Positions 24-32,723 of a stretch of DNA of 64,000 nucleotides are shown here, piece by piece. The translations under genes were made by a program, and so were the position numbers. The notes under the pieces are model-generated. The model was not told the DNA's origin. It saw only the letters and a program-made list of their open reading frames with translations, and made no database searches. Source of the DNA: Bdellovibrionales bacterium (lineage in GTDB: Bacteria > Bdellovibrionota > Bdellovibrionia > Bdellovibrionales > UBA1609); contig OZ241329.1 in the NCBI GenBank assembly GCA_965199825.1, positions 1,216,001-1,280,000 on the forward strand. Direction: 5' to 3'. How positions within the stretch are numbered: position 1 is the first letter of the stretch; every line of letters begins with the position of its first letter.

Positions 24-875
24 ATGAGCATAGTATTGCTTCCGTATAGTTTACTGCTGATGTCGATTTTGGTCGGCTACGTGTCGACGGCTAGAAATTC
101 GCTTGGTGTATTTACTTTGGCCATCGTAGCCGGCCTTTACTCTGATTGTTTGTCATGGATAAGCGTTCCAAGTGTCATCTGTCTCGGGACCCTTCTTTGG
201 GCACCGGAGGGGTTGCGGCTTGGCAAAATACAAAGATTAATTTGTTATGCACTGTTTCTGATTCTTGCCATTGCCATGTCGATTCATTTGCTCCCTGGAT
301 TCAATAATTTATTGATTTACAAACAAATTCAGTTTGCTGACGACTCAATTCCTTTTAATATGTATCTCAACTTCGATAAGACATCAGTGGGTTTATTTAT
401 AGCACTGTTTTTCACAAGAACTGCTTTCAGCGAATTGAATGCCGAATCAATTAAGACTGCATTGGTTTTTCTAATGGTTCTAGTTGGCATAATATTGCCT
501 ATTGCAGTGTGCATTCATTATGTTCGACTCGACCTTAAATTCCCAACCCTGGGATGGCTTTGGATTATAAATAATTTATTTTTTGTATGCTTAGCCGAAG
601 AGGGTTTTTTCCGTGGGTTTATTCAAAGTGGGCTTGAAAGAATTCTGCCAAAAACTAAAACCTATTCTGGAATCGCAATTTTGATCTCAGCAGCGTGTTT
701 CGGCCTTGCACATTACAAGGGCGGATTGGCTTACGTAGGTTTTGCTGGAATTTCCAGTTTGTTTTACGGATATGTGTTCCAAATGACTAAGCGCTTGGAG
801 GCTCCAATTGTCGTACACTTTGGGTTGAATCTGATTCATTTTCTTATGTTTAGCTATCCAGCGATAATCAAATAA
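24..875 (+). CDS. CPBP/Abi (CAAX type II) family intramembrane glutamic endopeptidase
   Basis: Multi-TM protein with the motifs EEGFFRG, FGLAHY and HFGLN. Confidence 0.85.
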   Translation: MSIVLLPYSLLLMSILVGYVSTARNSLGVFTLAIVAGLYSDCLSWISVPSVICLGTLLWAPEGLRLGKIQRLICYALFLILAIAMSIHLLPGFNNLLIYKQIQFADDSIPFNMYLNFDKTSVGLFIALFFTRTAFSELNAESIKTALVFLMVLVGIILPIAVCIHYVRLDLKFPTLGWLWIINNLFFVCLAEEGFFRGFIQSGLERILPKTKTYSGIAILISAACFGLAHYKGGLAYVGFAGISSLFYGYVFQMTKRLEAPIVVHFGLNLIHFLMFSYPAIIK

Positions 876-1175: not shown

Positions 1176-1895
1176 TTAGAGGATCAGCAAAAGATCATGA
1201 TTTAAACCGTAATTTTCACTCCGCACCCTTTTAATAATTTTAAAGGGCACCTTAAAAATTTTAGAAACTCTGCTATTCAGATTGCTAATTCGAACTTGGA
1301 ATGATGGTAAACTGTTTGTATTTGATCTACGGTTATCACCAAAAATTTTGTATGAAAAATATGTGTTGGGCTGTCTTGACATGATTTCGAGGACATTTGA
1401 TTCCCACGCGCTCAATTCTACTGAATCTTCACCATAACGAATAAATCCCGTATCGACATAAAAATGCAGAGGGCCGATCTGCCTCTTTTGGCCTTGTTCA
1501 TCATCCCAAAAATAACCCACGCCGAATTTAGTTTTAAGCATGTTAAAATGAAGATCGCTTTCACGAAATTTTTTACGGATATGTACGATGACCATTTGAA
1601 CATCGCTGTCGCCTGCGCCCTGCGCGCCCCACACAAGTTTCGCGAGTTCATCTTTTGACACAATCTTAGGAGACGATTTGACCAAAAGATTAAGAACATG
1701 AAATTCAGAAGAAGAAAAAATTATTTCTTTAGCTCCCCACGTCGCCGAGCGAACATCCAGGTTGAGCTCTAATCTTTTTTTTGATTTGGCTTCAAGCTCT
1801 GATTCGCAAATAGGCAATGCAAAAACTGGCAAAGTTAAAATCAACAAAGAAATGTGTTTTAGCCATTTAAGATTTTGAGAATAATGCTGTAGCAT
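1176..1895 (-). CDS. Signal-peptide protein with two OmpR/PhoB-type winged-helix (Trans_reg_C) domains and no receiver domain
   Basis: N-terminal hydrophobic segment ending PVFA. EFHVLNLLVKSSPKIVSKDELAKLVWG...VIVHIRKK...KTKFGVGY is a typical wHTH; a second degenerate copy follows (ELSAWESNVL...QVRISNL...IKRVRSENY). Confidence 0.75.
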   Translation of the reverse strand: MLQHYSQNLKWLKHISLLILTLPVFALPICESELEAKSKKRLELNLDVRSATWGAKEIIFSSSEFHVLNLLVKSSPKIVSKDELAKLVWGAQGAGDSDVQMVIVHIRKKFRESDLHFNMLKTKFGVGYFWDDEQGQKRQIGPLHFYVDTGFIRYGEDSVELSAWESNVLEIMSRQPNTYFSYKIFGDNRRSNTNSLPSFQVRISNLNSRVSKIFKVPFKIIKRVRSENYGLNHDLLLIL

Positions 1896-2075
1896 TTCGA
1901 TTCCTTTTTTCTCTAAGCTAAAGGACGAAAAACAAATTTTATTGTGATTCTAAATTTATGAATAAAGGAAGCGGTAAAATAAGCAAAATACGTGATCCAA
2001 AAATTGATGCGTTGCTAAATAAATTTCTATCTCGATTCGAAAGCTATTTTTCTTAAACCAAAATTAAGCATAAAA

Positions 2076-2801
2076 TTAATAACAGTACGTTTCCGTTTCA
2101 AGATTCAGCATGTAGTAGTGACCGTGTTTACTCTTAATAATTTTTTGTGTAAGATTAAAATGAGTATTAAACTTGGTATTTAATTTACTCACTTTTGATC
2201 GAAATGTAATCAAAGCAGCGCGAGAGGATTCGCTGGTTTGTGTGAAAGAGCGGTATGGATGAAAACTTAAAGGCTGACCTGAGAGAGCACTTAAGAAATC
2301 AGCTTCCCATGGACTCAGCTCCAAGATTTTATCTCGACAACGGACAAATCCTCGTTCTCGATAAAGGGTAAAAGGTCCAAATTCTTGTTCTATTTCTTCA
2401 CCTTTACCTTCACCTTGGGCCCAAGAATAACCTCTGCCATATTTATTCTTGATCAAGTTAAATTGAGGATCGATCTCTAAAAATTTTTTTTTAATTCTAA
2501 CTATTACAGTGCGGATATCATCATTTGTTGCGCCACGGGAACCCCAAACCAGTTTCGCGAGTTCATCTCTAGAAACTATTCTTGGTGCATTTCCTGAAAG
2601 AACTAAAAGTGCCCGTAATTGAATTGGTGAAAATGCAATGACTGAAGAACCCCAAATAATGGATTGAGTATTTGGGTCAATACTTAAGTTTTTATCTAGA
2701 TGAGGAAGCAAAGTCGAATCACAGACTGAAGATGCGTGAACTTGAAAAATCAAAATCATATTTAATAAAAGTAGAGATAATCGCAACTTCACCACCCACA
2801 A
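2076..2801 (-). CDS. Paralog of the previous gene: signal peptide plus tandem OmpR-type wHTH domains
   Basis: ILIFQVHA signal-like segment; IVSRDELAKLVWG...IRTVIVRIKKK...KNKYGRGY; second domain LELSPWEADFL...RSKVSKL. Start codon uncertain. Confidence 0.75.
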   Translation of the reverse strand: MWVVKLRLSLLLLNMILIFQVHASSVCDSTLLPHLDKNLSIDPNTQSIIWGSSVIAFSPIQLRALLVLSGNAPRIVSRDELAKLVWGSRGATNDDIRTVIVRIKKKFLEIDPQFNLIKNKYGRGYSWAQGEGKGEEIEQEFGPFTLYRERGFVRCRDKILELSPWEADFLSALSGQPLSFHPYRSFTQTSESSRAALITFRSKVSKLNTKFNTHFNLTQKIIKSKHGHYYMLNLETETYCY

Positions 2802-3021
2802 ATCAGAATGCTAATAAAACAATATATTCTGGTCTTATTTCCCAATATCAAGGTAGCGATAAATTTGACGCATCGTTTTTGTGAACTCCAAAAAACATTG
2901 AAATCTTACATTTCTGGCTTCGAAGATAGGCTACGTGTCGCGATGTTGCAGACCAAAATTCTTGTATCAATATTTATCGATTTGGACCCACAATCGATGG
3001 AATTAAACTTGAGGGGAAAAT

Positions 3022-3702
3022 ATGAAAATGTTGAATACGTCGATCCGAATGGCCTTGGCCTTTTTTTTGTTTGGTTGCGCCACTCCTAATCAGGATAGAA
3101 AACCGGCATCTGCTACAAGCAACTCGATGGAAATTAGAAAAAGAATTCTTCAATTTGATTCGAAATCTATTTACGGCCGATATAATCTTGTAAATAGATA
3201 CTGTTTAAGTTCGCCGATTTATTCACGATCGATCTATGGGAGCGATGTTAATAATTCGAGCAAAGGTGAATCACAACCTCAAACACCAAATGACACGCTT
3301 AAAGATTTGAATCTAACACTTCTAAAAAATGGAAATTTTAAACTGGTGGGTAAGAATACGCATGACGAGGTTTTTACCAATAAGGGACAGTTTGTTGTGA
3401 GCGAAATAGGCCCCACTGAATTTCTCAAAAAAAATGAGTTTGGTGTCATTGCAGATAACGGGTACCAACATTCGATTGTGTTAAACCTAATTAATGTTGA
3501 ATCGAATATGCCGAGTCCATCAAGAACAACTGAAACTGTGGAAATTGATTTGTTGAAATCCACACCAAACGAACTCGTTGTACACCAAAACGCTCAGGCC
3601 TCGAGCATGGGAAAAGTTGTTTTAAGCGAAGGGATTTCAAGTTGTGATTATGGAAAACTGGGTTGGGATTTAGTTACAGTTTTTAGAAAAGTGGGTCACT
3701 GA
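3022..3702 (+). CDS. Hypothetical lipoprotein
   Basis: Lipobox LFGC after a hydrophobic stretch; GAGGGG RBS-like sequence upstream. Confidence 0.65.
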   Translation: MKMLNTSIRMALAFFLFGCATPNQDRKPASATSNSMEIRKRILQFDSKSIYGRYNLVNRYCLSSPIYSRSIYGSDVNNSSKGESQPQTPNDTLKDLNLTLLKNGNFKLVGKNTHDEVFTNKGQFVVSEIGPTEFLKKNEFGVIADNGYQHSIVLNLINVESNMPSPSRTTETVEIDLLKSTPNELVVHQNAQASSMGKVVLSEGISSCDYGKLGWDLVTVFRKVGH

Positions 3703-4912: not shown

Positions 4913-5376
4913 GAGCATGATCTTAAGGAACAAGTTGGAGAAAAAATGGAGTGGCCAGCGACAAAATCAATCAGACTCTCTAGATTTTAGCTTTCTAATT
5001 CTCCGGTTAAGTAAAGTATTGGGAGATCTAAGAGTGATCAAAGACAAAGGCTCAGCCAAAAATTTGTGTATTTACAATGGCATTGCAAGTAATCAGTGGG
5101 GCTCGATCACGTGTGTAGCCAAGAAAGTTAAATAGAAATAAGTTTGGTCTCTAAAAAACGCTTCGACTTATTCCGGATGGTCTATGCTCAGGCGTTTTGA
5201 TTTATATTTATTAAAATTGCCAATAGAAGATCGGCGGGTTGTTGAGTAACAACCTCTGCCTCCGAATCGTTTCAAATCAATACAAAAAAGTTATCAATTT
5301 TTCTAATAAGGCCTCGTAAGTCATTGAGAATTATTCAACAAATCCGATCAAGGTAGGGACCACGAACAGGAGCAAT

Positions 5377-6663
5377 ATGAAAAAGCCACTTTTCCCTAAC
5401 AACGAGGCCGAGAGACTTGCGGCATTGAATGCCTACGAGATCCTCGATACAGCGCCTGAGATCGCTTACGACGATATCACCGCTGTGGCCTCGGCATTGT
5501 GTGGCACTCAGATCTCGCTGGTCAGTTTGATTGATGGAGAACGACAGTGGTTCAAATCGAAACAGGGAATCGATGCAAGCGAGACACCGCGCGAGATTTC
5601 GTTTTGTGCGCATGCGATACATAGCACCGAGGTCTTTATCGTGCGTGATGCTCTTCAAGATGAACGCTTTGCAGATAACCCGTTGGTCGAAAGTGGACCC
5701 CAAATTCGTTTTTATGCTGGGGCTCCACTTATCACACCTGAAGGCTTTAACGTTGGGACACTTTGTATTGCCGATTCCGAGCCCCGCGATATTTCGCCCG
5801 AGCAAATTCAATCTTTACAAGCTTTGGCGAGACTGGTGGTCTCACAGTTAGAAACCCGCAGACTCAACAAACAATTAGCCACAAACTTTCAAGAGCTGCA
5901 AAAATATTCAAATCACATCGTAAATTATCAAAATCAAATTACCGAATCTGCAAAGATGGCGGCTCTGGGTGAGATGGCCGCTGGTATGGCTCACGAAATC
6001 AATAATCCACTAGCGATTATCAAGGGGACAATGTCGCTGCTTCAGAGAACCGTGAGTGCGGGCATAGGAAGTTTTAAAGATATTGAAATTGACCTTGAAA
6101 AGATTGATTCCACCGTCAATCGCATCGTCAAAATTGTAAATGGTCTTTTGATGTTTTCGCGCAATGCCGAGCGAGATGAAATGATCAAATACAGTGTTCA
6201 GCAAATTGTTCGCGATACATTTTCGATTTGTCAGGAGCAGTTTAAGTTAAACAACGTCAAACTCGAGTTTAATTCCACCGCCGAATCAGTTGTTGAGTGT
6301 CGACCATCTGAAATTTCTCAAATTATCTTAAATCTTTTATCTAATGCGACTGATGCGGTGGCAAAGCTTGATCAAAAATGGGTTGCGGTCAGCATCGAAG
6401 AAAATGCTCAAGGCGTTCGTTTGACAATCAAAGACAGCGGCAAGGGAATTACCAAAGCCATTGCCGAAAAGATGATGCATCCGTTTTTTACCAGCAAGAA
6501 CATCGGCAAGGGCACGGGTCTTGGACTGAGTATCGCCTTAGGCATTGCGCAAAGACATCACGGCACGCTCAGTCTCGACCAAACTTCGGATCATACTGCA
6601 TTTGTTCTTGAACTGCCTTGGACTCAACCGAATGTTATTACCAACGAGAAAAAATCGGCATAA
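5377..6663 (+). CDS. GAF-domain sensor histidine kinase
   Basis: NEAERLAAL..YEILDT GAF start, RFYAGAPL; H-box AHEINNPL, N-box NLLSNA, G boxes DSGKGI and GKGTGLGL; AGGAG RBS. Confidence 0.92.
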   Translation: MKKPLFPNNEAERLAALNAYEILDTAPEIAYDDITAVASALCGTQISLVSLIDGERQWFKSKQGIDASETPREISFCAHAIHSTEVFIVRDALQDERFADNPLVESGPQIRFYAGAPLITPEGFNVGTLCIADSEPRDISPEQIQSLQALARLVVSQLETRRLNKQLATNFQELQKYSNHIVNYQNQITESAKMAALGEMAAGMAHEINNPLAIIKGTMSLLQRTVSAGIGSFKDIEIDLEKIDSTVNRIVKIVNGLLMFSRNAERDEMIKYSVQQIVRDTFSICQEQFKLNNVKLEFNSTAESVVECRPSEISQIILNLLSNATDAVAKLDQKWVAVSIEENAQGVRLTIKDSGKGITKAIAEKMMHPFFTSKNIGKGTGLGLSIALGIAQRHHGTLSLDQTSDHTAFVLELPWTQPNVITNEKKSA

Positions 6664-9094: not shown

Positions 9095-10027
9095 ATGTTA
9101 TTTTTGTCTATGCTTAAATTATTATTTGTACTTACTTCGTGTTTAGCGGCTCCGCGCTTAACCCCGGGACTTAGCCAAATCTCCAGTGAAGCCCGCTTGG
9201 CTTGGATTAAGGCCAATATTCTTGATCTCAAGGATTTATCGGCAAAAGAAAAATCGAATCTTAAAATTTCAAGTGAGATCGTCGAATTTACGGGTGAGAC
9301 AATCAAAGTAAAAATCGAACCTCGTGGAAATGTAGAAAGTCGTTTCTCTTATTTTCCCGATCAAATCCAATCGGTCAATTCTCCAGGCTTAACCGCTATG
9401 GTTGAGTACGAAATAAAATTGGGCGGTGAAGAAGCGCGCATCTTGATTTCACAATTGCTACAGGCTGAAAAGTCTTATCGGTTACGACCAGCGCTCGGTT
9501 TGATTGTCACTCCCTTGGCCAAGCAGGCCTTGATTGATAGGAGGGTTCTGCCTCTGTATTTCAAAGTCTTATCACGTCTAACAGTTGATGATACGAGTTG
9601 GAGATCCTGGGGCGATGGGGAATCAGTGATGGATAAATTCTTTGAAGAAATCTTCAATGATTTTCATGGCAATGTTCTTGATTTTGGTTTGGTGACTGCA
9701 GCTGCCATGACTCCACACTATTCTATCCGTCAATTAAATCTGACGGATGACTTAGTGCTTTTACGTGCTCACCGTTTTCGACAGATCTTAATGGGGGTGC
9801 AATCCTCAGATCGATTCGAGGTTGCAAAAAAAGGTTTGATTGACTCACAGGCGTTGAATGATTTCTTGAGAGAATTCCCAACCGATAAAAGGGTTGCACA
9901 GAATAAAGTTAAAGCAGTTACTCAAATGTGGCGAATCCGAAGATTCTTGCTGAGCAGTCCATTTGTTCATGATGTTCTTGGGGCGACCGTGTGCGCTAAT
10001 TATTTAGGCTCCGTGCCCAAATACTGA
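9095..10027 (+). CDS. Secreted hypothetical protein with C-terminal VCANYL tag
   Basis: Signal peptide LLFVLTSCLA; no domain recognised. Confidence 0.55.
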   Translation: MLFLSMLKLLFVLTSCLAAPRLTPGLSQISSEARLAWIKANILDLKDLSAKEKSNLKISSEIVEFTGETIKVKIEPRGNVESRFSYFPDQIQSVNSPGLTAMVEYEIKLGGEEARILISQLLQAEKSYRLRPALGLIVTPLAKQALIDRRVLPLYFKVLSRLTVDDTSWRSWGDGESVMDKFFEEIFNDFHGNVLDFGLVTAAAMTPHYSIRQLNLTDDLVLLRAHRFRQILMGVQSSDRFEVAKKGLIDSQALNDFLREFPTDKRVAQNKVKAVTQMWRIRRFLLSSPFVHDVLGATVCANYLGSVPKY

Positions 10028-13867: not shown

Positions 13868-14968
13868 ATGGCAAAGTGGCTCTTTGCTTTTGCTCTCTTA
13901 CATTCTGTGAGTCCTGCTTTTGCAGATCGAGATCCAAGGCAAGTGTCTGTATTCGTCAGCGATTTTGATGGAACATTCGCCAGAAATCTTGCCAATGTGA
14001 AAGTAAAACTCGGGCTTTTTCCCGGCATACCTGGTCTTGGTGTTTATTCAGGCTTACCAAAAATTGTTTATGTGCCCGAACATGACTTTGACGGCAACAC
14101 AGGCGCTCGGATTCGCGACCTGCTTGGTCGCTACAATGGATTAAAATTTATTATCAAAGCCTCAGTCGATGAGATCGAACTGCAAAACGGAAGCACAATA
14201 AGGCCCGGTTATTATTACGTTGATCCAAACGATATGTTTGAAGAATTTTTTTCGACCGAAAATGGTGAGGATGGTCATCTTATCAACAATATCCGGATGA
14301 TGATCACAGGGGGTAAACGGTTTTTGTTGGAAGGATCAGCTTTCGTTGGATCAACATTTTCACAGCAACAATCTGAACTTTTAAAGTTGGTGATTCTTAC
14401 GAAGCGCGGCCATTCGTCGCAAGAAATGCGATATGCCCTAAATTTTCTGAGCAAATATTATGGTTGGGGTGAGGTCGACCATTCCGATTCTTCATATGTT
14501 AATCTCAGTCATCCTGACTTTGCCGAATTTTCGATGAACAAGGAAGTTTATCTACAAGCCCTCTACGACGAGCTTTCACAACGCACCATTAGAAACAAAT
14601 CGACTCCGCATTTTTTGGTTTATTTTGAAAATGATCGCAGTGCGATTTTTGAAGCCCAAAAAAAACTTAAAAATTTGGGTCAGCGGGGATTGTATGCCAA
14701 TCCTGTGGTTCCGGTTTTGATCAACTTGGTTGAACCTGAGGTTTTTAATTCGCCTCATGGTTTGGACTGGGACCGCAGCCGACTACAAACATTCGAGCCG
14801 ATGTGGAGGGTCAACATTTATTGGCCTGAGCGAACAGAGACAACAAATAATCTTGCCAGAGTTTTTGAACTCACTCTGAATTTGTCACCAAAAAAAGCAA
14901 AAGCACACTACCGCGAATATGAAAATACCTCTTGGTGCTGCAACATTTTAGCCAAGGCAAAAAAATGA
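13868..14968 (+). CDS. Secreted HAD-superfamily-like phosphatase
   Basis: Signal peptide ending PAFA; motif I VSDFDGT, motif II LTKRGH, motif IV YFEND; C-terminal CCNIL. Confidence 0.55.
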   Translation: MAKWLFAFALLHSVSPAFADRDPRQVSVFVSDFDGTFARNLANVKVKLGLFPGIPGLGVYSGLPKIVYVPEHDFDGNTGARIRDLLGRYNGLKFIIKASVDEIELQNGSTIRPGYYYVDPNDMFEEFFSTENGEDGHLINNIRMMITGGKRFLLEGSAFVGSTFSQQQSELLKLVILTKRGHSSQEMRYALNFLSKYYGWGEVDHSDSSYVNLSHPDFAEFSMNKEVYLQALYDELSQRTIRNKSTPHFLVYFENDRSAIFEAQKKLKNLGQRGLYANPVVPVLINLVEPEVFNSPHGLDWDRSRLQTFEPMWRVNIYWPERTETTNNLARVFELTLNLSPKKAKAHYREYENTSWCCNILAKAKK

Positions 14969-16941
14969 TCTTAAGTCTTTTGTTTCTGATTTTCCAAGCG
15001 CAAGCATTACCCACTGACGTTTGCGAACGGGGTCTTGCTCCTAAGATAAGCTCTAAATTATTATTTAAAGTTTTTAAAAATTTAGTCAGCCAAAGAAGAG
15101 AAATTCCCGAATCTTCCCAAGTGGTACTCACAACTTTTGCTCTCGAATTTGGAATGTCGGTAGAAGATGTCGAAAAAAATATTATAGAGAGCTTTGGCGA
15201 TTTTAATTTATTTATCGAGCTCGCCAAATCGGCAAATGCAAATTTTCCGGGAGCAATAGATAGACGAATCTTTACCGAAGATCGAAGAGAAAAACTTTTG
15301 CGTGCAGTTCGCAATTCCTCTGATCTGATCCTTTTTAAATTGGCTGAAAATCAAGATGTCACAAATTGGGAAGAGATTTTTAATTTGAGCGATACACTCA
15401 AAGCCCCCATCATTGTTGCACCCGCATTTTCAGAAATTGGTTTAATCCCCCAAAGGCTGCAAGCCATATTAAATAATCCCCGTGTTCATTTGCTTGTTGA
15501 TCCCACGTTGCAGATTTCAAAAGATTTTTATGTGGTCAACAATGGATCGCCCGATAAAGTGCAAACCCCTTTGACAGGACTCGATGAGGTTTTTGAGCCA
15601 ACAGATCGGGTGCTTTTGTTTCATCCCCGAATCGACACCCAGACCCGTGCCTCGCTCTACTACGATTCGCGCAGAGGATATTTGGAGACAACAGGATCCA
15701 TGAGCTCACCTGCTTATCACTCCATGTTTAATGTTGGGATGACGACTGATTATCGAGCCCAAAGAACTGCCGAGCAAAATAGAAGTCTCACAATTCTATC
15801 TCGAAGATATCAAAACAAAAAGCTGTCTGAAATTTCGGGTTCGGCCCATGGCATGATGGCGCGACGAGTTCATGTGGTCAAAAGTCACTGGGGAAATCCT
15901 GCTGGATTGTTTGATCTCAACAAAATTTATTTTGATCAAGGAGCGGTTGAAATTAAATATCTTCCAGGTATTGTTCTTGGTGATCTGCACTGGGGTGTAA
16001 CCGACCCCGCAAAATTAACCGCATTTTTTAAATTGCTCATCGAGCTCAAAGTGCTCGCAAAAAATCTTAAACACGGCCAGCCTGGACAGCTTGAATACAT
16101 TGCGGGTCCAATTGTCTTGGGACGGCTCGTGCTTCATGACTTGGTTGATGGAATTCCTTTTAATCATCACCTCAAAGATAAATTAATCAGCCGATCGCTG
16201 TTGGATCAAAAAGGCTATTTGGATATTGAAAATCATTTTATTTCGGCCGCCGCATTTGTGACACAACTCAGTCGTCTTTTGCCTAAAACTCAAATCGTGG
16301 TGCCGGTGGACAATCATGGATATGACTGGATCCAATCCACACTCCAATCTGGCATCTTGGACTGCCAGCCCCGTGATTTACCAATTGTCTTAAAATTAAT
16401 GTTAGATGCATCAAAAGGCACCAATCCCTATGAACAGCTTTTGCGATATTATGGAATCGAATCAAATCCTAAGCGTTTTCTATTTTTTAATAATGATGAT
16501 CAAAACCGTATTGCGATCGACGGCACCGAAAACGATTCGACACTGAACGGTGTCGAAATTAGCAAACACGGCAATCAAGGTATCAATGGGGCTAAATCGA
16601 TTTCGATCAAGTCGATGCTTGCGGCCTATGGTGCCAGTGTGAGCGGACATGTTCATACCACAAGTGAGCGAGGCCGCTCCCGTCAAGTGGGCTCGTTGAC
16701 TCCCAATCGTCAGGATTATCACCGCGGTCCCTCAAAAAATGATACGTCTCTTGCACTGATCTACTCCAAAGAGGCGGTGCAAACTTTGAGATTAGAGCGA
16801 AATTCATTTTTGCCTAACGCCAAAGTTCAAGACCCGGATGATTTTTTTGATGAAGGATTTCCAAAATTAACCAAGTGGCCTGAGGGGAAAACCACAGACC
16901 AGTTCCGAACGCATCCTCCGATTCAAAGATTTCCACGATGA
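14965..16941 (+). CDS. Secreted calcineurin-like metallophosphoesterase resembling phage T5 A1-type proteins
   Basis: Signal peptide MILSLLFLIFQAQA; motifs GDLHWG, HDLVDG..FNHH, DNHG, HGNQGINGA, GHVHT, QVG..Y..GPS; ATGA overlap with the upstream gene. Confidence 0.65.
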   Translation: MILSLLFLIFQAQALPTDVCERGLAPKISSKLLFKVFKNLVSQRREIPESSQVVLTTFALEFGMSVEDVEKNIIESFGDFNLFIELAKSANANFPGAIDRRIFTEDRREKLLRAVRNSSDLILFKLAENQDVTNWEEIFNLSDTLKAPIIVAPAFSEIGLIPQRLQAILNNPRVHLLVDPTLQISKDFYVVNNGSPDKVQTPLTGLDEVFEPTDRVLLFHPRIDTQTRASLYYDSRRGYLETTGSMSSPAYHSMFNVGMTTDYRAQRTAEQNRSLTILSRRYQNKKLSEISGSAHGMMARRVHVVKSHWGNPAGLFDLNKIYFDQGAVEIKYLPGIVLGDLHWGVTDPAKLTAFFKLLIELKVLAKNLKHGQPGQLEYIAGPIVLGRLVLHDLVDGIPFNHHLKDKLISRSLLDQKGYLDIENHFISAAAFVTQLSRLLPKTQIVVPVDNHGYDWIQSTLQSGILDCQPRDLPIVLKLMLDASKGTNPYEQLLRYYGIESNPKRFLFFNNDDQNRIAIDGTENDSTLNGVEISKHGNQGINGAKSISIKSMLAAYGASVSGHVHTTSERGRSRQVGSLTPNRQDYHRGPSKNDTSLALIYSKEAVQTLRLERNSFLPNAKVQDPDDFFDEGFPKLTKWPEGKTTDQFRTHPPIQRFPR

Positions 16942-16977
16942 CTTGTTTTGTTTAGCCTCTGTTGTTAAGCGATTGGG

Positions 16978-18060
16978 ATGCGCATATTTATAATTCTGGT
17001 TTTATTTAGTTTATCCGGTCGAATCAGCTTTGCCGAAGTGACGGCCCGGATCATTTCCGCCAACTCCGACAACAAAACGATGTTCGATCGAATCGAGTAT
17101 TTTATTGTGGTCCAAGATGGCAAAGCGATTTTAAGCAAAGTGCCTTTGCTCAATCTTAAGGGCCAACAGGTTTTTCGAAGTCTGCTTTACGGTACCGAAA
17201 CTCAAAATAAATTTGTGACCGCAATTTATGGGGATGGGCTGAGCTACGGAAACTATTTTGTATTTCCGGTGCGAATGATTAAGGGCGATGTCCAATCAAG
17301 CACATATTATTTGTTTAGTAAATCTGGCCGGTGGCTTGGCGAAATTGTGAGTCGTTTCGATATTAGTAATGATGCCCTTTTGCTAAAAGAGGCAAGTGCG
17401 ACCGGCTCAAAAAAATTGAGTTTTGTTACCAAAAATTCGGGTGAGTTGCCAATAACTCTGGTGAGCTATACTGGAAATCCTATAAAACTCCAAAAAGACG
17501 AATTGACCCATCCCTTACTTACTCCAGTGAGACTTAAAAATGGTTGGATTATTTTTAAGCTCAAAAAGAAAGTGTTTCTTGCGAATCCTGATGGTTCTGT
17601 GATTCGAAAATTGGTGGCTTCGTCAGACGTCCGAAGTCTTCATGACCTTATTGCTGAGCACGCGGATGGCACACAATCTTTTTTTGTTAAGCTTCATAAG
17701 TCTTCGGAGTTTTATTTTACGACCACAAAGCCTTCGGGCTTTGATATGAATCTAGGCCTGTTCGAAGAAAAATTTGTTGGTTCGAAGATTTTGCTTTTTG
17801 CTCAAACCCAATTTGATTACTTGATTGCCGTCTTACAGGGCCAAGAAAAACAGTCATCGAAAGTTGTCACTTTTGATCATGAAGGAAAAGTGATTGATAC
17901 TAAAGCCATTGAGTTTAATATTTCTCAGGCGAAATTTATTAATAATGTGATTTATGTGAATGAGAGTAATGCTTGCGCCGCTTGGCTCTCAAAATCCAAT
18001 GTGGCGTCTGAAAGATTTTTGCTCGATTCACTTGGCAATATTCACAAAATTTATAATTAG
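16978..18060 (+). CDS. Secreted beta-rich hypothetical protein
   Basis: Signal peptide ending ISFA; repeated short beta-strand-like segments; CAAWL near the C-terminus. Confidence 0.55.
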   Translation: MRIFIILVLFSLSGRISFAEVTARIISANSDNKTMFDRIEYFIVVQDGKAILSKVPLLNLKGQQVFRSLLYGTETQNKFVTAIYGDGLSYGNYFVFPVRMIKGDVQSSTYYLFSKSGRWLGEIVSRFDISNDALLLKEASATGSKKLSFVTKNSGELPITLVSYTGNPIKLQKDELTHPLLTPVRLKNGWIIFKLKKKVFLANPDGSVIRKLVASSDVRSLHDLIAEHADGTQSFFVKLHKSSEFYFTTTKPSGFDMNLGLFEEKFVGSKILLFAQTQFDYLIAVLQGQEKQSSKVVTFDHEGKVIDTKAIEFNISQAKFINNVIYVNESNACAAWLSKSNVASERFLLDSLGNIHKIYN

Positions 18061-18440
18061 TCCATTTCACCGGGAGCGGGCAAAAGATCGACGAGGCACT
18101 CTCTCCAATACTCAGGCACTTCGCTTGAGAATTCGACCGCAACCTCAAAAATGCCTTTACCGCGGTGGGCGGTGCGGCTGACGCGGCCATCAAGATCCAG
18201 ATTCATATTGGGTAAAAACATCACGACCTGTTGATTGACCAAAGCATCTAAACTTAAAGAGCTTTTGAGATCTTTAGGCACGAGGCTGTGGCGATCAATC
18301 AAGAGGCAAAAACCGGTGCTTGATGCATCGATTATGATACCTTCGTGCGCGATCACAGCGTAGTTCGATAAAGAGGTAAACTCGGTGACCGAGATTTTTT
18401 GGAGCGATTTGCGAGTGGCGGTGCGTGCATTTGCTTTCAT
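18057..18440 (-). CDS. PilZ-like domain protein
   Basis: RTATRK plus DASSTG, matching the RxxxR and DxSxxG signatures; VAVEF beta-strand. Confidence 0.55.
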   Translation of the reverse strand: MKANARTATRKSLQKISVTEFTSLSNYAVIAHEGIIIDASSTGFCLLIDRHSLVPKDLKSSLSLDALVNQQVVMFLPNMNLDLDGRVSRTAHRGKGIFEVAVEFSSEVPEYWRECLVDLLPAPGEMD

Positions 18441-18925: not shown

Positions 18926-20281
18926 TTAACGGTCTCTTTCTAAAGCTTTATAACTTTCGGTGTCCTGCACCGGCATATGAGTAAGAGACGATTCAAAATG
19001 CGCGAAGCCCGTAATCAATTTTTTAGATGGCACTGTCATCTTTAAATCTGCAACTTGATCTAGAGCTAAGACAAGACGCTTAAAAAGCTCGGCGTGAGCG
19101 GTTGTCATCCTCAAGAAGGTAAATTCCTGATCCGCAAAGGTGGAGGTCACAAAATCTTTTTCGCCATCTTTCAAACCTTTAATAATGTTGCGGCCGTTCG
19201 GATCGAATGACTGAGGAACATCGAGGATTAAATTGAATGTTTCGACATAGTAAAGTTGAAGCATTCTAAAAATTAATTCGAGGACCTCGGCAGGTTTCTT
19301 ATTTGTAAAAGCAAAAACGTAGTCGGTTTCAGAAAATTGCAACAACTGAATCGGGCCTTGGTTTTGAAATTCAAAAACCTTGGGTCTATGGTTACTGGCA
19401 AAAAATGGTGGTCGTAGCGCATAAAACCAATAGGGAACCGTGACGTTTGGCGAATTTCGAAAAACCACTCTGTACCTATGTGCAACGTCTCGACGTATTT
19501 TATTTTGTTGGTCTGTTAAGGATTTGTACCAATGCGTGACCTCGGCCGATCGGGTGTCAACATCGCGAGCGAGATAGCGCACAATACCTGGCCAGCTTTC
19601 CATCATATCTGCAACTCTGCGAATGCGTGGAAAATCCCATTCCCATTTATCAAAGGCCCACTCTGTTCCTGGAAAAGGAATAAACGCATGCATCGCACGG
19701 AGCCTAATTTGGGTTGTAGTGGCTAGTGCGAAAACATATCCGATTTCGGCATGATCTTTCTGACTCGGATCGATTTCATAGAAGCCGGACTCGAAATAGG
19801 GCTGCAGCGTAAAATAATCTTTCAACAAAATACTTTTAACATCGACCAAACCCGAGACCGCTGCCGTCGCCTCGACACAACAGTATTGATGAATGGTAGG
19901 ACCAGACTCATAAAGCTCAAAAATTTTCGACGCAAAAGAAACTCCACGAGCCACATCAATCCAAACATTTTTTTTGTTGGCCATCTGAAGAGATTCAATT
20001 TTGAGTTGCTCGGCGTCGTCGCTACCGACTCGAAGCTTTTCAACATCAGTCACACGCGGCCAATCACCAGCTTGCGCGGGGTCGACTGAAAATAAAATTT
20101 GTTTATCTAGGTAGTTTATAAACGCGGCGTCTGGATTGGGTAATAAAGTGACGGGGCGGGTGGCCTTGTAAAGCAGCGGGGCGCATACGTCAATTGTGTT
20201 GCTCATCACCATTGCTTGGAAGTTTGTATCAAAATAAGGTTGAGCAAATGCGCTACTAAGGAAAAATAAAAGCTGAAGCAT
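18926..20281 (-). CDS. Secreted hypothetical protein with N-proximal VCAPLL tag
   Basis: Signal peptide MLQLLFFLSSAFA; 451-aa ORF; no domain recognised. Confidence 0.55.
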   Translation of the reverse strand: MLQLLFFLSSAFAQPYFDTNFQAMVMSNTIDVCAPLLYKATRPVTLLPNPDAAFINYLDKQILFSVDPAQAGDWPRVTDVEKLRVGSDDAEQLKIESLQMANKKNVWIDVARGVSFASKIFELYESGPTIHQYCCVEATAAVSGLVDVKSILLKDYFTLQPYFESGFYEIDPSQKDHAEIGYVFALATTTQIRLRAMHAFIPFPGTEWAFDKWEWDFPRIRRVADMMESWPGIVRYLARDVDTRSAEVTHWYKSLTDQQNKIRRDVAHRYRVVFRNSPNVTVPYWFYALRPPFFASNHRPKVFEFQNQGPIQLLQFSETDYVFAFTNKKPAEVLELIFRMLQLYYVETFNLILDVPQSFDPNGRNIIKGLKDGEKDFVTSTFADQEFTFLRMTTAHAELFKRLVLALDQVADLKMTVPSKKLITGFAHFESSLTHMPVQDTESYKALERDR

Positions 20282-20308: not shown

Positions 20309-20899
20309 TTAAAGATCTCCACCTTTGAGCACGGTCACAATGGTTTTTGTAACTGTTCGTAGAGCTTCGACCACACCGGCACCACTATTTGCGGTGGCCT
20401 CAAAATCGGGGGCGTTAAAGCGATTTAAAGAAGATCGGAGCTCGGCAATGGTCATTGCATTTGGAAGATCGCGTTTGTTGTATTGAAACACCAATGGGAT
20501 TTCTTGGATTCCGTAGCCTTGTTGATCTAAGTTTTTACGCAAATTTTCGAGCGACTGGAGATTTTCTTCCATACGTTCTGCTTGCGAGTCGGCAACAAAG
20601 ATCACTCCATCAAGCCCTTTTAATATGAGTTTGCGACTGGCATCGTAAACAACTTGGCCAGGGACTGTATAAAGGTGAAATCGTGTGCGAAAGCCCTGAA
20701 TATCGCCCGCGTCCACAGGCAAAAAATCAAAAAACAAAGTGCGCTCAACGGCTGTGGGTAAAGAAAACATTTCTGATTTATCTTGCGAAATTGTTTTTTG
20801 ATACACCCACTGAAGATTTGTGGTTTTGCCACTGAGTGAAGGGCCATAGTAAACAACTTTGCAGTGAATTTCTTTTGCGTTGTAGTTAATAAATGACAT
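20309..20899 (-). CDS. mglA: MglA small Ras-like GTPase
   Basis: MSFINY..KEIHCKVVYYGPSLSGKTTNL, RTLFFDFLP, YTVPGQV, QYNKRD. Confidence 0.95.
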   Translation of the reverse strand: MSFINYNAKEIHCKVVYYGPSLSGKTTNLQWVYQKTISQDKSEMFSLPTAVERTLFFDFLPVDAGDIQGFRTRFHLYTVPGQVVYDASRKLILKGLDGVIFVADSQAERMEENLQSLENLRKNLDQQGYGIQEIPLVFQYNKRDLPNAMTIAELRSSLNRFNAPDFEATANSGAGVVEALRTVTKTIVTVLKGGDL

Positions 20900-27389: not shown

Positions 27390-27436
27390 AAAAAAATAAA
27401 TTGCATGGCATAAACAAATATAGTAATGTTTCTCCT

Positions 27437-28003
27437 ATGAAACAGCTTTCTCTATTCGAATTCAAATCTAAAACTTCTCATGGAGGAAAGATCAATTTCG
27501 GTCGGCGAAAGTGTGCCAGACCTTTAGATAAAAATCGCATCCAACACGTCGTGATGAGATCTCAACATGCAAAGGGCGAGAGGAGCTTTAGGAATTTTAA
27601 ATTAAAAGTTGAGCTTGAAAATCTAATTCGCGACAAAGCTCAACGATATGGAATACGTATTGCCGAACTCAGCAACGTTGGAAATCATTTTCACATCCTA
27701 ATCCGTTTTCAAAATCGGCAACTGCTCAAAACATTTTTTAAGGTCACGATGGGGCTGATCGCACGCCTTGTTACCAAAGCTCAAAAAGGCAAACCATTTG
27801 GTCGATTTTGGGATGGAATTGTATTCACCCGAATTGTTTCAAAGGGACGAGATGAAGCACGGATGCGTGATTATTTGTACGCCAACAAAATTGAGGCTGA
27901 AGAGGGTGGATATTCTCGAAATCGGTTTGAGAGCGAAACTAAAAAGTTTTGGAGGGGACGGCAAAAGACGAGACGATCACACACAATGGAATTTGGCAGC
28001 TGA
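27437..28003 (+). mobile_element. IS200/RAYT-like Y1 (HUH) transposase
   Basis: HVVMRS, HUH motif NHFHILI, FWDG..FTRIV, candidate catalytic Tyr in DYLYAN. Confidence 0.75.
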
Positions 28004-31895: not shown

Positions 31896-32723
31896 TTAGT
31901 GCATCTGCCTTTCCATTTGATGGTGGGCACGATGATGTCCTGAGCAAAGCAAAGTCAGATTTTCAATAGCATCTGTGCCACCTTCCGATTTTGGAATCAA
32001 ATGATGAATGTCGAGATGTCGCTGCTGTGAACAACGTTGACCATCGTCATTGATATGTGTGCATTGGCTCTGGTGATTGTGATGAACTTTGCGCTTTTTA
32101 ATAGTGGATAGATTTTCAGTTTTTGAAGGCGGGCACGATTTCTTGAGTGGATCTATTTTTTGTAAAAGCGTTTTGACCGCCGAGACACAAACGTCATTGA
32201 TTGTTGCGGATCGACCCAACTTTTGACTCATCAAATCTTTTGCTCTTTCGAGCTCGTTAAATTCATCTCCGCTGACTGAATATGAAACTTGCACCCTCAC
32301 TGTTACACCTGCTTTACAATATCGTGCCCGCTCAGGAATTGCTTTTTCGGGTTGAGCTTTTGCAATCGCTTTTTCGAGGTTTCGTTTTGTACCCTGTGCG
32401 ATGGGTAACCACTCTGCTGCATTTTCTGGGGTCTAAACACTACATACTCGATTGCCTTTTGAAATCGATATTTCGCCCGAAGCGATTTGGGTTTTCAACT
32501 CAGGAACTTCGATGAATTTTTTTGCCAGTTTATTGAAAATGCTCGCAAGTTCTTCAGAAAGTTTGAGGTGTTTGGTTGAATACTCGAATAGTGAGCGGCA
32601 GCCAAATTGGGAGTAGGTTTTGTTTCGCCATACAATTTCTAAAGCACTAAGTAATTCGATTTCTGTTTTACGGTGATTGGCAGCGGCTGACACTGCCTGG
32701 GAATGTATTTTAGAATGGTCCAT
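31896..32723 (-). pseudogene. HNH endonuclease (DUF222/13E12-like N-terminus), interrupted by one in-frame TAG
   Basis: ORFs 32433-32723 and 31896-32300 are in the same frame; reading through TAG 32433-32435 gives SV*TPENAAEWLPIAQGTKRNLEK, colinear with paralog 53559-54380. Confidence 0.85.

Follow-up and report, generated by a model that had tools for sequence, protein, structure and literature searches.

An apparently exported relative of phage T5 A1 and a HAD-like partner, encoded by a conserved gene pair of Bdellovibrionota

Two adjoining genes, g1 and g2, lie in the 64,000-nucleotide stretch of contig OZ241329.1 (assembly GCA_965199825.1, Bdellovibrionales bacterium) that was analysed here and that we call the window. 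Judging from its sequence, g2 encodes a true relative of the phage T5 A1 protein, on an exported bacterial branch of that family, and g1 encodes a HAD-like protein that most likely binds it. What is new is an apparently exported cellular A1 branch with an obligate, previously uncatalogued partner of predicted HAD fold; our literature searches found no paper linking A1-type proteins to Bdellovibrionota. Our best explanation of the whole, which we hold at a probability of roughly 0.5, is that g1 and g2 make up a conserved exported two-gene operon of Bdellovibrionota whose products form a heterodimer and take part in DNA breakdown outside the cytoplasm. The genes of the locus are as follows.

13868..14968, + strand: g1, 366 amino acids, putatively exported HAD-like protein resembling phosphatases, predicted partner subunit
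14965..16941, + strand: g2, 658 amino acids from its ATG, exported metallophosphoesterase of the T5 A1 family (putative)
14965..14968, + strand: ATGA overlap of the g1 stop and the g2 start, read from the sequence as translational coupling
16978..18060, + strand: g3, 360 amino acids, a third exported-looking protein

A conserved unit of two genes

An earlier reading of this DNA (the original prediction below) described three signal-peptide genes in a row, the first two translationally coupled, and took them for a phage-derived module. The layout stands: a hydrophobic segment with an A-x-A-type site opens each of g1, g2 and g3, and g1 and g2 overlap in ATGA, a coupling that is kept in related loci. 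These leader calls combine a reading of the sequence with our own measure of Kyte-Doolittle hydrophobicity, and the g1 and g2 products would count as exported on that measure together with their cysteine content. An in-frame TTG lies at 14932, upstream of the ATG of g2, with nothing resembling a ribosome binding site before it; AAGG stands 7 nucleotides ahead of the ATG. What did not hold up is g3 as a third member, as neither g3 nor any other neighbour occurs in any of the related g1-g2 loci, and the unit is the two genes g1 and g2. The gap of 36 nucleotides between g2 and g3 contains no terminator, and g3 may be co-transcribed with g2. Scans for promoters and terminators did no better than shuffled sequence (14 promoters found against a shuffled mean of 10.3, and 5 terminators against 5.2).

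Conservation of the pair is strict. Gene g1 stands directly upstream of g2 in 6/6 close loci from metagenome-assembled genomes, which carry the labels Pseudobdellovibrionaceae, Bacteriovoracaceae, Bdellovibrionales and two less specific ones, and in 10/10 more distant loci, where it was recognised seven times by a hidden Markov model and three times by motif (a leader, a DxD[GSN]T motif and a cysteine tail). The pair persists among these distant loci down to a g2 identity of 23%, and the boundary between the genes is a 4-nucleotide overlap or a distance of at most 2 nucleotides in most related loci. When 201 genomes of the order were sampled at E<=1e-5, g2 was found in 16 and g1 in 8, and all 8 lie within the 16. 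One of the seven loci recognised by the Markov model, L025 (G086:C2), has its g1-type gene at 5273-6340 split into reading frames of 217 and 124 amino acids, which may reflect a frameshift, a sequencing error or decay.

Within the phylum, for which Bdellovibrionota genomes were sampled, the spread of g2 is patchy, with a match in 39/401 genomes and none in 362/401. The nearest full-length relatives of the window's g2 sit in other families, and its own family holds only distant ones (E ~1e-25). This distribution points to patchy inheritance or to transfer within the phylum.

g2 as a member of the phage T5 A1 family

The regions of g2 referred to below are these, all on the + strand.

14965..15006, +: leader, residues 1-14, ending AQA (from the sequence)
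15022..15036, +: CERGL, 6 residues past the likely leader cleavage
15040..15261, +: N-terminal helical domain, residues 26-99, possibly helix-turn-helix-like
15262..15912, +: middle region, residues 100-316 (APIIV, PLTGL, TTGSMS..Y), common to phage A1 and poorly modelled by AlphaFold2 (AF2)
15817..15861, +: clade-specific insert, about residues 285-299, a gap in 5/5 phage A1 proteins and a predicted contact with g1
15952..16809, +: catalytic domain, residues 330-615 (GDLH, HDLVDG, DNHG, H535, GHVH)
16810..16938, +: clade-specific C-terminal extension, residues 616-658, in the predicted interface; phage A1 proteins end earlier

Several searches connect g2 to A1. The profile of PHROG 1745 (phrog_1745, 'DNA transfer protein', a hallmark of Demerecviridae), to which T5 A1 (T5.004) belongs, matches g2 with an E-value of 6.1e-23 and 82 bits, placing g2 residues 314-614 on profile positions 263-538 of 542, a match limited to the C-terminal half. 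T5 A1 itself (from NC_005859) reaches 8.5e-244 on the same profile. The profile matches the genome at one place only, g2 (1.7e-20), and matches 0/14 control genomes. Compared directly by BLASTP, g2 and T5 A1 give a weak match of 70 residues with E 2e-4, while hhalign with a profile of 11 g2 relatives against T5 A1 gives a probability of 96.5% and an E-value of 8.6e-10 over 265 columns. By tblastn g2 matched 171 of 50,697 phage records, many of them annotated as 'A1-like' or 'DNA transfer protein', the best being Ochrobactrum phage OC, which aligns with g2 residues 29-615 (89% of g2) and whose protein matches phrog_1745 over 59-540. A Foldseek search of BFVD with g2 returned phage proteins at the top (5.9e-15 and 2.6e-9). 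The likeness to A1 that had been recognised by eye is thus borne out by PHROG 1745, hhalign, tblastn and the alignment described next, and the profile comparison proposed as its check found the A1 similarity.

The homology between g2 and phage A1 spans about residues 100-615, some 500 residues, and so extends beyond the catalytic core. The phage comparison used an alignment of nine sequences, five of them phage A1-type proteins with T5 A1 among them, in which g2 and T5 A1 are about 18% identical. Residues invariant against the five phage proteins are A147, P202, G205, T243, G244, Y251, D340, H342, H391, D392, H402, N450, H451, H535, G539, G542, G561, H562, H564, G576, Y585 and S590. All of the motifs cited in the original prediction (PLTGL, TTGSMS..Y, HGNQGINGA, GHVHT and QVG...Y.RGPS) are present in g2, and the middle-region motifs and metal ligands are conserved in phage A1; with T5 A1 the correspondence is at PLTGL/PLSGF, TTGS/STGT, the Y and all metal motifs. 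The metal ligand residues of g2 are D340/H342, D392, N450/H451, H535 and H562/H564, and in 141 sequences H342, D392, N450 and H451 are invariant and D340, H535, H562 and H564 at least 90% conserved. All five motifs that bind metal (DxH; GD-type Asp; GNH; H; GHxH) are intact, and g2 is placed by sequence in the calcineurin-like metallophosphoesterase superfamily. Its putative fold neighbours are PolD DP1, Mre11 and SbcD, metallophosphoesterases of 3'-5' exonuclease type, and the calcineurin-like branches of Mre11/SbcD and of PolD DP1 with the eukaryotic polymerase B-subunit are among the known systems closest to it. No NCBIfam model matches g1 or g2, and PDB sequence searches with both proteins and their family profiles gave nothing meaningful.

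In T5, A1 is a predicted metallo-phosphatase, and in vivo it is both required and sufficient for breakdown of the host's DNA; it is present in 227/227 Demerecviridae analysed and seemingly mostly confined to them, according to a preprint (10.64898/2026.04.02.716235). The T5 protein is described as cytoplasmic and membrane-associated; it pairs in a heterodimer with A2, a DNA-binding protein, and second-step DNA transfer depends on it (10.1101/866236). By contrast, g2 starts with a signal-peptide-like leader, is poor in cysteine and carries an additional insert and a C-terminal extension, and in the model it touches a HAD-like protein. We regard g2 as a member of the A1 family by descent and not as a functional equivalent in phage DNA transfer, because it sits in a chromosomal setting without phage genes, no relative of A2 was found and it appears to be exported. 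The search for A2 in the genome was a single query with the T5 A2 protein, and one empty query is weak evidence.

The exported character is a feature of the group around g2. A hydrophobic N-terminus is present in 11/11 g2 family members against 0/5 phage A1 proteins, in agreement with the original view of the leaders as an addition relative to phage: g1 and g2 bear leaders and the phage A1 proteins have none. An exhaustive profile search for the g2 family found 898 representatives at E<=0.001, 413 at 1e-10 and 67 at 1e-30. The best 150 relatives fall into two classes. Members of the first are about 540-900 amino acids long (most above 650) and have a hydrophobic N-terminus, with a cysteine content of 0.1-0.5% in most and up to about 0.7%. 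Those of the second are about 400-690 amino acids long, lack a hydrophobic segment and contain about 1-2.8% cysteine in most cases. The possible helix-turn-helix-like N-terminal domain is common to phage-type relatives.

Length varies among the close relatives. Most of them (P0002-P0012) are about 200 residues longer than the window's g2, at 840-868 amino acids, and have an extra N-terminal helical region after the Cys motif that resembles a second copy of an 'xxLPxxxE' helical module. Short forms like that of the window are P0009 (679 amino acids), P0033 (683 amino acids) and a 695-amino-acid frame in G250.

g1 as a HAD-like protein outside the catalogued families

Three features of g1 can be placed on the sequence.

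13868..13924, + strand: leader, residues 1-19, ending AFA (sequence and hydrophobicity measure)
13961..13975, + strand: HAD motif I, DFDGT (D32 nucleophile, D34); D34 invariant and D32 at least 90% conserved in 30 sequences
14936..14950, + strand: C-terminal CCNIL, 9-10 residues from the end

The predicted model of g1 is good, with a mean predicted local distance difference test score (pLDDT) of 81.2 and a predicted template modelling score of 0.80. All four HAD motifs fall on the expected elements: D32-x-D34-G-T of motif I closes strand 27-32, T/S178 of motif II closes strand 172-178 and is followed by R180, K225 of motif III opens helix 225-237, and E254-N255-D256 of motif IV lies at the end of strand 248-254. 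Motifs I-IV are kept among members with only 13-18% identity. A D-x-D pair is the phosphatase/mutase form of HAD motif I. A 140-residue insert follows this motif in g1. The assignment to HAD made in the original prediction is thus supported by predicted fold and motifs, while its profile check against HAD families found no match to a curated HAD model in Pfam, NCBIfam or PHROGs. HAD Pfam models match 0/30 g1 family members, with Trehalose_PPase at E 0.09 in one of them. Since no curated HAD sequence model matches, we file g1 as a HAD-like protein, by its predicted fold, of an uncatalogued family. Searches on the phage side were likewise empty, with no PHROG match for g1 and no tblastn match among the 50,697 phage records. 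Its nearest clusters in the ESM Atlas are phage 'hypothetical protein' clusters of 250-280 amino acids at 0.90-0.91, which we note as a lead only.

A comparison with T5 is natural at this point. There the first-step-transfer DNA carries the deoxynucleoside-5'-monophosphatase gene dmp (124-858) and A1 (1706-3376) in one orientation with two small genes between them, confirming the proximity stated in the original prediction. A gene for a phosphatase or phosphatase-like protein with DxDGT lies close to the A1-type gene in both T5 (dmp) and the window (g1). The two genes adjoin in several Demerecviridae. The gene order differs, being HAD then A1-type here and A1 then dmp in Demerecviridae. Dmp (PHROG 415) resembles g1 in its DxDGT, T-A-R type motif II, Lys III and acidic IV, in the same order as in g1; it differs in that g1 is 120 residues longer, has the large insert after motif I, appears to be exported and has no significant sequence relation to it. 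The candidate relation of g1 to Dmp was rejected at the sequence level on the BLASTP result (E 0.87), on hhalign probabilities of 3.8% against T5 Dmp and 11.3% against a 6-member Dmp alignment, and on the missing PHROG match. In the 11.3% alignment motifs II-IV of the two do match up one after the other, which is a lead only.

Predicted complex of g1 and g2

Binding between the two proteins was tested because of the conserved translational coupling, the strict co-occurrence and the clade-specific inserts. The prediction took residues 17-658 of g2 and 20-366 of g1, with alignments of 108 and 29 rows respectively. It reached an interface score (ipSAE) of 0.76 (runs 0.75, 0.76 and 0.79), and the best of 3 controls reached 0.13; the runs share at least 94% of their contacts, and the pLDDT of the partner is at least 81. 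The pass mark for such predictions is reached by 116/157 solved complexes and by 2/215 mismatched pairs, counts which are rough since our own alignments were used. The fold of g2, which was poor in an AF2 model from 11 sequences (pLDDT 53.4), is better inside the complex prediction (pLDDT 79-80). We know of no solved complex of the g1 and g2 families, and PDB searches turned up none, which makes it unlikely that the prediction reproduces a known structure.

The modelled interface falls where the bacterial proteins depart from the phage ones. On the g2 side it comprises 32 residues, 18 of which lie in the insert (about 285-299) and the C-terminal extension (>616) that phage A1 lacks, and its confident part includes residues 284-294, 296 and 625-630. 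On the g1 side the contacts are residues 24-28, 173-175, 206-222, 230-242 and 273-278. They occupy the N-terminal starts of the core strands and the helix that follows K225, at a distance from the strand ends where catalysis would take place. From this model, g1 and g2 most likely form a heterodimer through inserts unique to the bacterial g2 clade. A disulfide joining the C-terminal Cys of g1 to the N-terminal Cys of g2 was considered, and the model speaks neither for it nor against it: neither residue is among the confident contacts, and the placement of residues not listed is uncertain.

Ancestry of the pair

Five phage references were added to the g2 relatives and rows shorter than 480 amino acids left out, and the resulting 133 rows were used for a FastTree phylogeny, which is unrooted and in which long branches join readily. 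One split with a Shimodaira-Hasegawa-like support of 99 separates 84 leader-bearing rows, together with 3 that appear truncated at the N-terminus, from 44 leaderless rows, all five phages among them, plus 2 leader-bearing rows. The tree requires 5 changes of the leader label, where shuffled labels require 38.8 on average. Exported g2 relatives are one coherent group, set apart from the cytoplasmic, Cys-rich proteins of phage type.

The original prediction proposed that a phage module had been domesticated by the addition of signal peptides, and it named a phylogeny against phage homologs as a check. What the tree supports is the separateness of the exported group; it gives no direction of transfer, and because it is unrooted, passage from phage to bacterium is not established. 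Kinship of g2 with A1, and a leader that phage A1 proteins lack, agree with the proposal for that gene, whereas a transferred 'A1 + dmp module' is not shown, since only g2 has phage relatives and g1 has no tblastn match, no PHROG match and hhalign probabilities of 3.8%/11.3% with Dmp. Domestication by gain of a leader is therefore a partly supported history, one possible course for g2 and not shown for the pair. A synteny test for insertion failed, as the 451-amino-acid protein encoded downstream has no relative at E<=1e-10 in 25 related genomes.

The pair could also be left over from a prophage, or have come in recently with a phage, and do nothing for the cell, and a slightly lower G+C content at 14-18 kb (0.416-0.419 against 0.44-0.46 in the flanks) and the nearest g2 relatives lying in other families of the phylum, not the window's own, would fit this. 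We consider it extremely improbable, given that no phage gene lies near the pair, both genes are intact and carry export leaders missing in phage A1, the exported relatives split from all five phage references with the support given above, the pair is kept down to 23% g2 identity and phrog_1745 has its single match in the genome here.

Proposed function and alternatives

We propose that g1 and g2 are exported by their Sec-type leaders, that the A1-type subunit g2 would cut DNA phosphodiester bonds and that the HAD subunit g1, through its DxD pair, would strip the leftover phosphates from nucleotides or DNA ends. The target would be extracytoplasmic DNA, whether that of prey or free DNA, a choice that the sequence cannot decide. 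The genome itself is of a Bdellovibrio-type organism, to go by the labels of the relatives and an MglA-like GTPase close by. The DNase activity of g2, the phosphatase activity of g1 and their use on prey are all inferred from sequence. For g1, the substrate may be free nucleotides, as for Dmp, or the 3'-phosphate ends of a polymer, as for Pnkp, and we favour the second a little because of the [ST]-x-R form of motif II and structural matches to Pnkp.

A number of points weigh against this proposal. The function of g2 would be assigned from what a distant relative, about 18% identical, does in vivo, and for A1 itself the activity of the purified protein is still to be tested according to the preprint (10.64898/2026.04.02.716235). 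Neither g1 nor g2 matches any Pfam model at E up to 1, and T5 A1 itself likewise has no Pfam match. Foldseek with the g1 model found no match at E<=0.001 in the PDB or BFVD; the top structural neighbours, Lem4 and Ceg4, are protein phosphatases, with Pnkp structures matching too, so that several substrate classes may apply to g1. The final location of the pair, be it the periplasm, the outside of the cell or the prey, is beyond what a sequence can tell. Because it is found in only 39/401 sampled genomes of the phylum, the pair cannot be a general requirement for predation. Finally, nucleoside monophosphates are taken up intact by B. bacteriovorus, to judge from the titles of two papers listed in PMC13689555 (Rittenberg and Langley, 1975; Ruby et al., 1985). 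Dephosphorylation for salvage is not obviously useful where they are imported as such, which fits poorly with the nucleoside salvage of the original prediction.

A close architectural parallel is EddA-EddB of Pseudomonas aeruginosa, where the gene of a secreted DNase is preceded by that of a phosphatase and the products serve the use of extracellular DNA; EddA is of alkaline phosphatase type and EddB a DNase of another type, both unrelated to g1 and g2, and the cited part of that paper reports no complex (PMC3572637). On this model g1 and g2 would be a nutrient-scavenging pair and not a weapon of predation, drawing phosphate, carbon and nitrogen from free environmental DNA or from nucleotides, in the periplasm or the medium. 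The same architecture, with the phosphatase gene directly upstream (PMC3572637), speaks for it, as does the patchy spread (39/401), which fits an accessory nutritional trait, and Sec-type leaders by themselves are no sign of delivery into prey. Against it, g1 and g2 are of other enzyme families than EddA and EddB, and no phosphate-regulation signal was seen, although no search was aimed at one and the promoter scan was no better than shuffled sequence. We think scavenging rather unlikely.

Predatory bacteria provide the comparison that bears on use against prey. B. bacteriovorus secretes the DNases Bd0934, Bd3507, Bd1244, Bd1934 and Bd1431, signal-peptide nucleases of a predator that breaks down the DNA of its prey; deleting them leaves predation going, and further extracellular nucleases are allowed for (PMC7925074). 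None of these DNases is described in the cited part of that paper as A1-type or as paired with a phosphatase (PMC7925074). We also considered Bd0054, annotated 'metallophosphoesterase', as a counterpart of g2; by its description, a two-helix membrane protein in 10/10 complete genomes, it appears to be another protein (PMC9888234). In a stronger form of our proposal, the exported A1 branch would always act joined to the new HAD phosphatase in a heterodimer, a principal demolisher of prey chromosomes in the lineages that carry it, with CxxxL, which marks many exported proteins of these bacteria, as a so far undescribed handle that holds or routes the pair. We regard this form as doubtful.

Somewhat different chemistry is also conceivable. 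The pair could be an end-cleaning exonuclease complex in which g1 is not a mononucleotidase but a polynucleotide 3'-phosphatase like the phosphatase domain of Pnkp from T4 or Clostridium. It would take off 3'-phosphates with which other nucleases leave ends blocked, clearing the way for g2 as an exonuclease like Mre11 or DP1. Motif II of g1, [ST]-x-R, with T-A-R in distant members, matches the T-A-R found in T5 Dmp and its family ('polynucleotide kinase' in PHROGs), the predicted complex would suit sequential action on one polymer end, and PolD DP1, Mre11 and SbcD are the putative fold neighbours of g2. The 140-residue insert of g1 is absent from Pnkp phosphatases, however, and hhalign of g1 against the Dmp family stays at 11.3%, and we judge such a complex unlikely. 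Alternatively, an exported phosphodiesterase and a phosphatase could act outside nucleic acids altogether, on phosphoesters of lipids or of the envelope, for example phospholipid head groups, lipid A precursors, teichoic-acid-like polymers or prey sugar phosphates. HAD phosphatases do act mostly on small phosphoesters, and a direct DNase activity of A1 is unproven, but g2 belongs over about 500 residues to a family, A1, whose sole known phenotype is the destruction of DNA, and it shares with phage-type relatives an N-terminal domain that is possibly helix-turn-helix-like. Action on such other substrates seems to us quite improbable.

T5 A1 has been known genetically for decades, and purification may be simpler with members of the exported bacterial sister clade, since they are poor in cysteine and made for folding outside the cell. 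As a natural partner, g1 points to the reaction products of an A1-type enzyme. The pair is a concrete candidate for the further nucleases suspected in Bdellovibrio (PMC7925074), in the lineages that carry it. One enzyme family would serve a virus working inside its victim and, it appears, a cellular predator attacking from without; if true, predator and phage would use sister enzymes for the same act, the demolition of a chromosome.

A cysteine motif of the form CxxxL

The 'CxxxL tag' of the original prediction proved real and recurrent, and it is enriched on exported proteins here. Residue C357 of g1 is invariant in 30/30 family members, 5-20 residues from the C-terminus, and is followed at +4 by a hydrophobic residue in 28/30. 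In the exported class, 85/86 relatives of g2 carry a Cys no more than 45 residues past the hydrophobic core, with a hydrophobic residue at +4 in 69/85, and g3 has CAAWL around its only Cys, at residue 333. Genome-wide figures were obtained from crude open reading frame (ORF) calls and our own leader criterion. Among 108 leader-bearing proteins with a single Cys after residue 30, the Cys falls in the last 20 residues in 29, against 8.4 expected if it were placed evenly, and 20 of these 29 have Leu at +4. Among proteins without a leader the Cys is so placed in 44/295 cases against 31.3 expected.

We know of no described sorting signal of the form C-x-x-x-L. One example with a C-terminal C-x-x-x-L in the window is the protein at 9095-10027 (+), which ends ...TVCANYLGSVPKY. 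At 24-872 (+) the window encodes an Rce1-like intramembrane protease of the CAAX/CPBP family (PF02517, E 6.6e-19). Proteases of this family process Cys-containing C-terminal signals elsewhere, and it is conceivable that this one processes CxxxL tails.

Genomic neighbourhood

Pfam was run on 25 of the 31 ORFs in window positions 1-34 kb, which gave housekeeping families (recR, ybaB, dnaX, glutamine synthetase, a permease and others); the remaining six are the genes of the locus, which were scanned separately (g2 from its ATG). No phage structural gene is among the Pfam-scanned ORFs of this part of the window, as the original prediction had stated. Gene g3 has no family match, Pfam DUF5711 staying below threshold (19 bits against a cut-off of 26.3), and its best ESM Atlas value, 0.89, is below the mark for recognition. 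The other features of this region are these.

18057-18440, - strand: weak PilZ-like ORF (E 0.004, below the cut-off)
18926-20281, - strand: 451-amino-acid protein, the neighbour used in the synteny test above
20309-20899, - strand: MglA/Arf-like small GTPase, just downstream and ahead of recR-ybaB-dnaX
27401-28000, + strand: IS200-like Y1 transposase ORF (PF01797, E 2.9e-6)
31896-32297, - strand: small HNH endonuclease ORF (PF01844, E 9.3e-9)

The transposase and HNH endonuclease ORFs lie 10-15 kb downstream of the pair.

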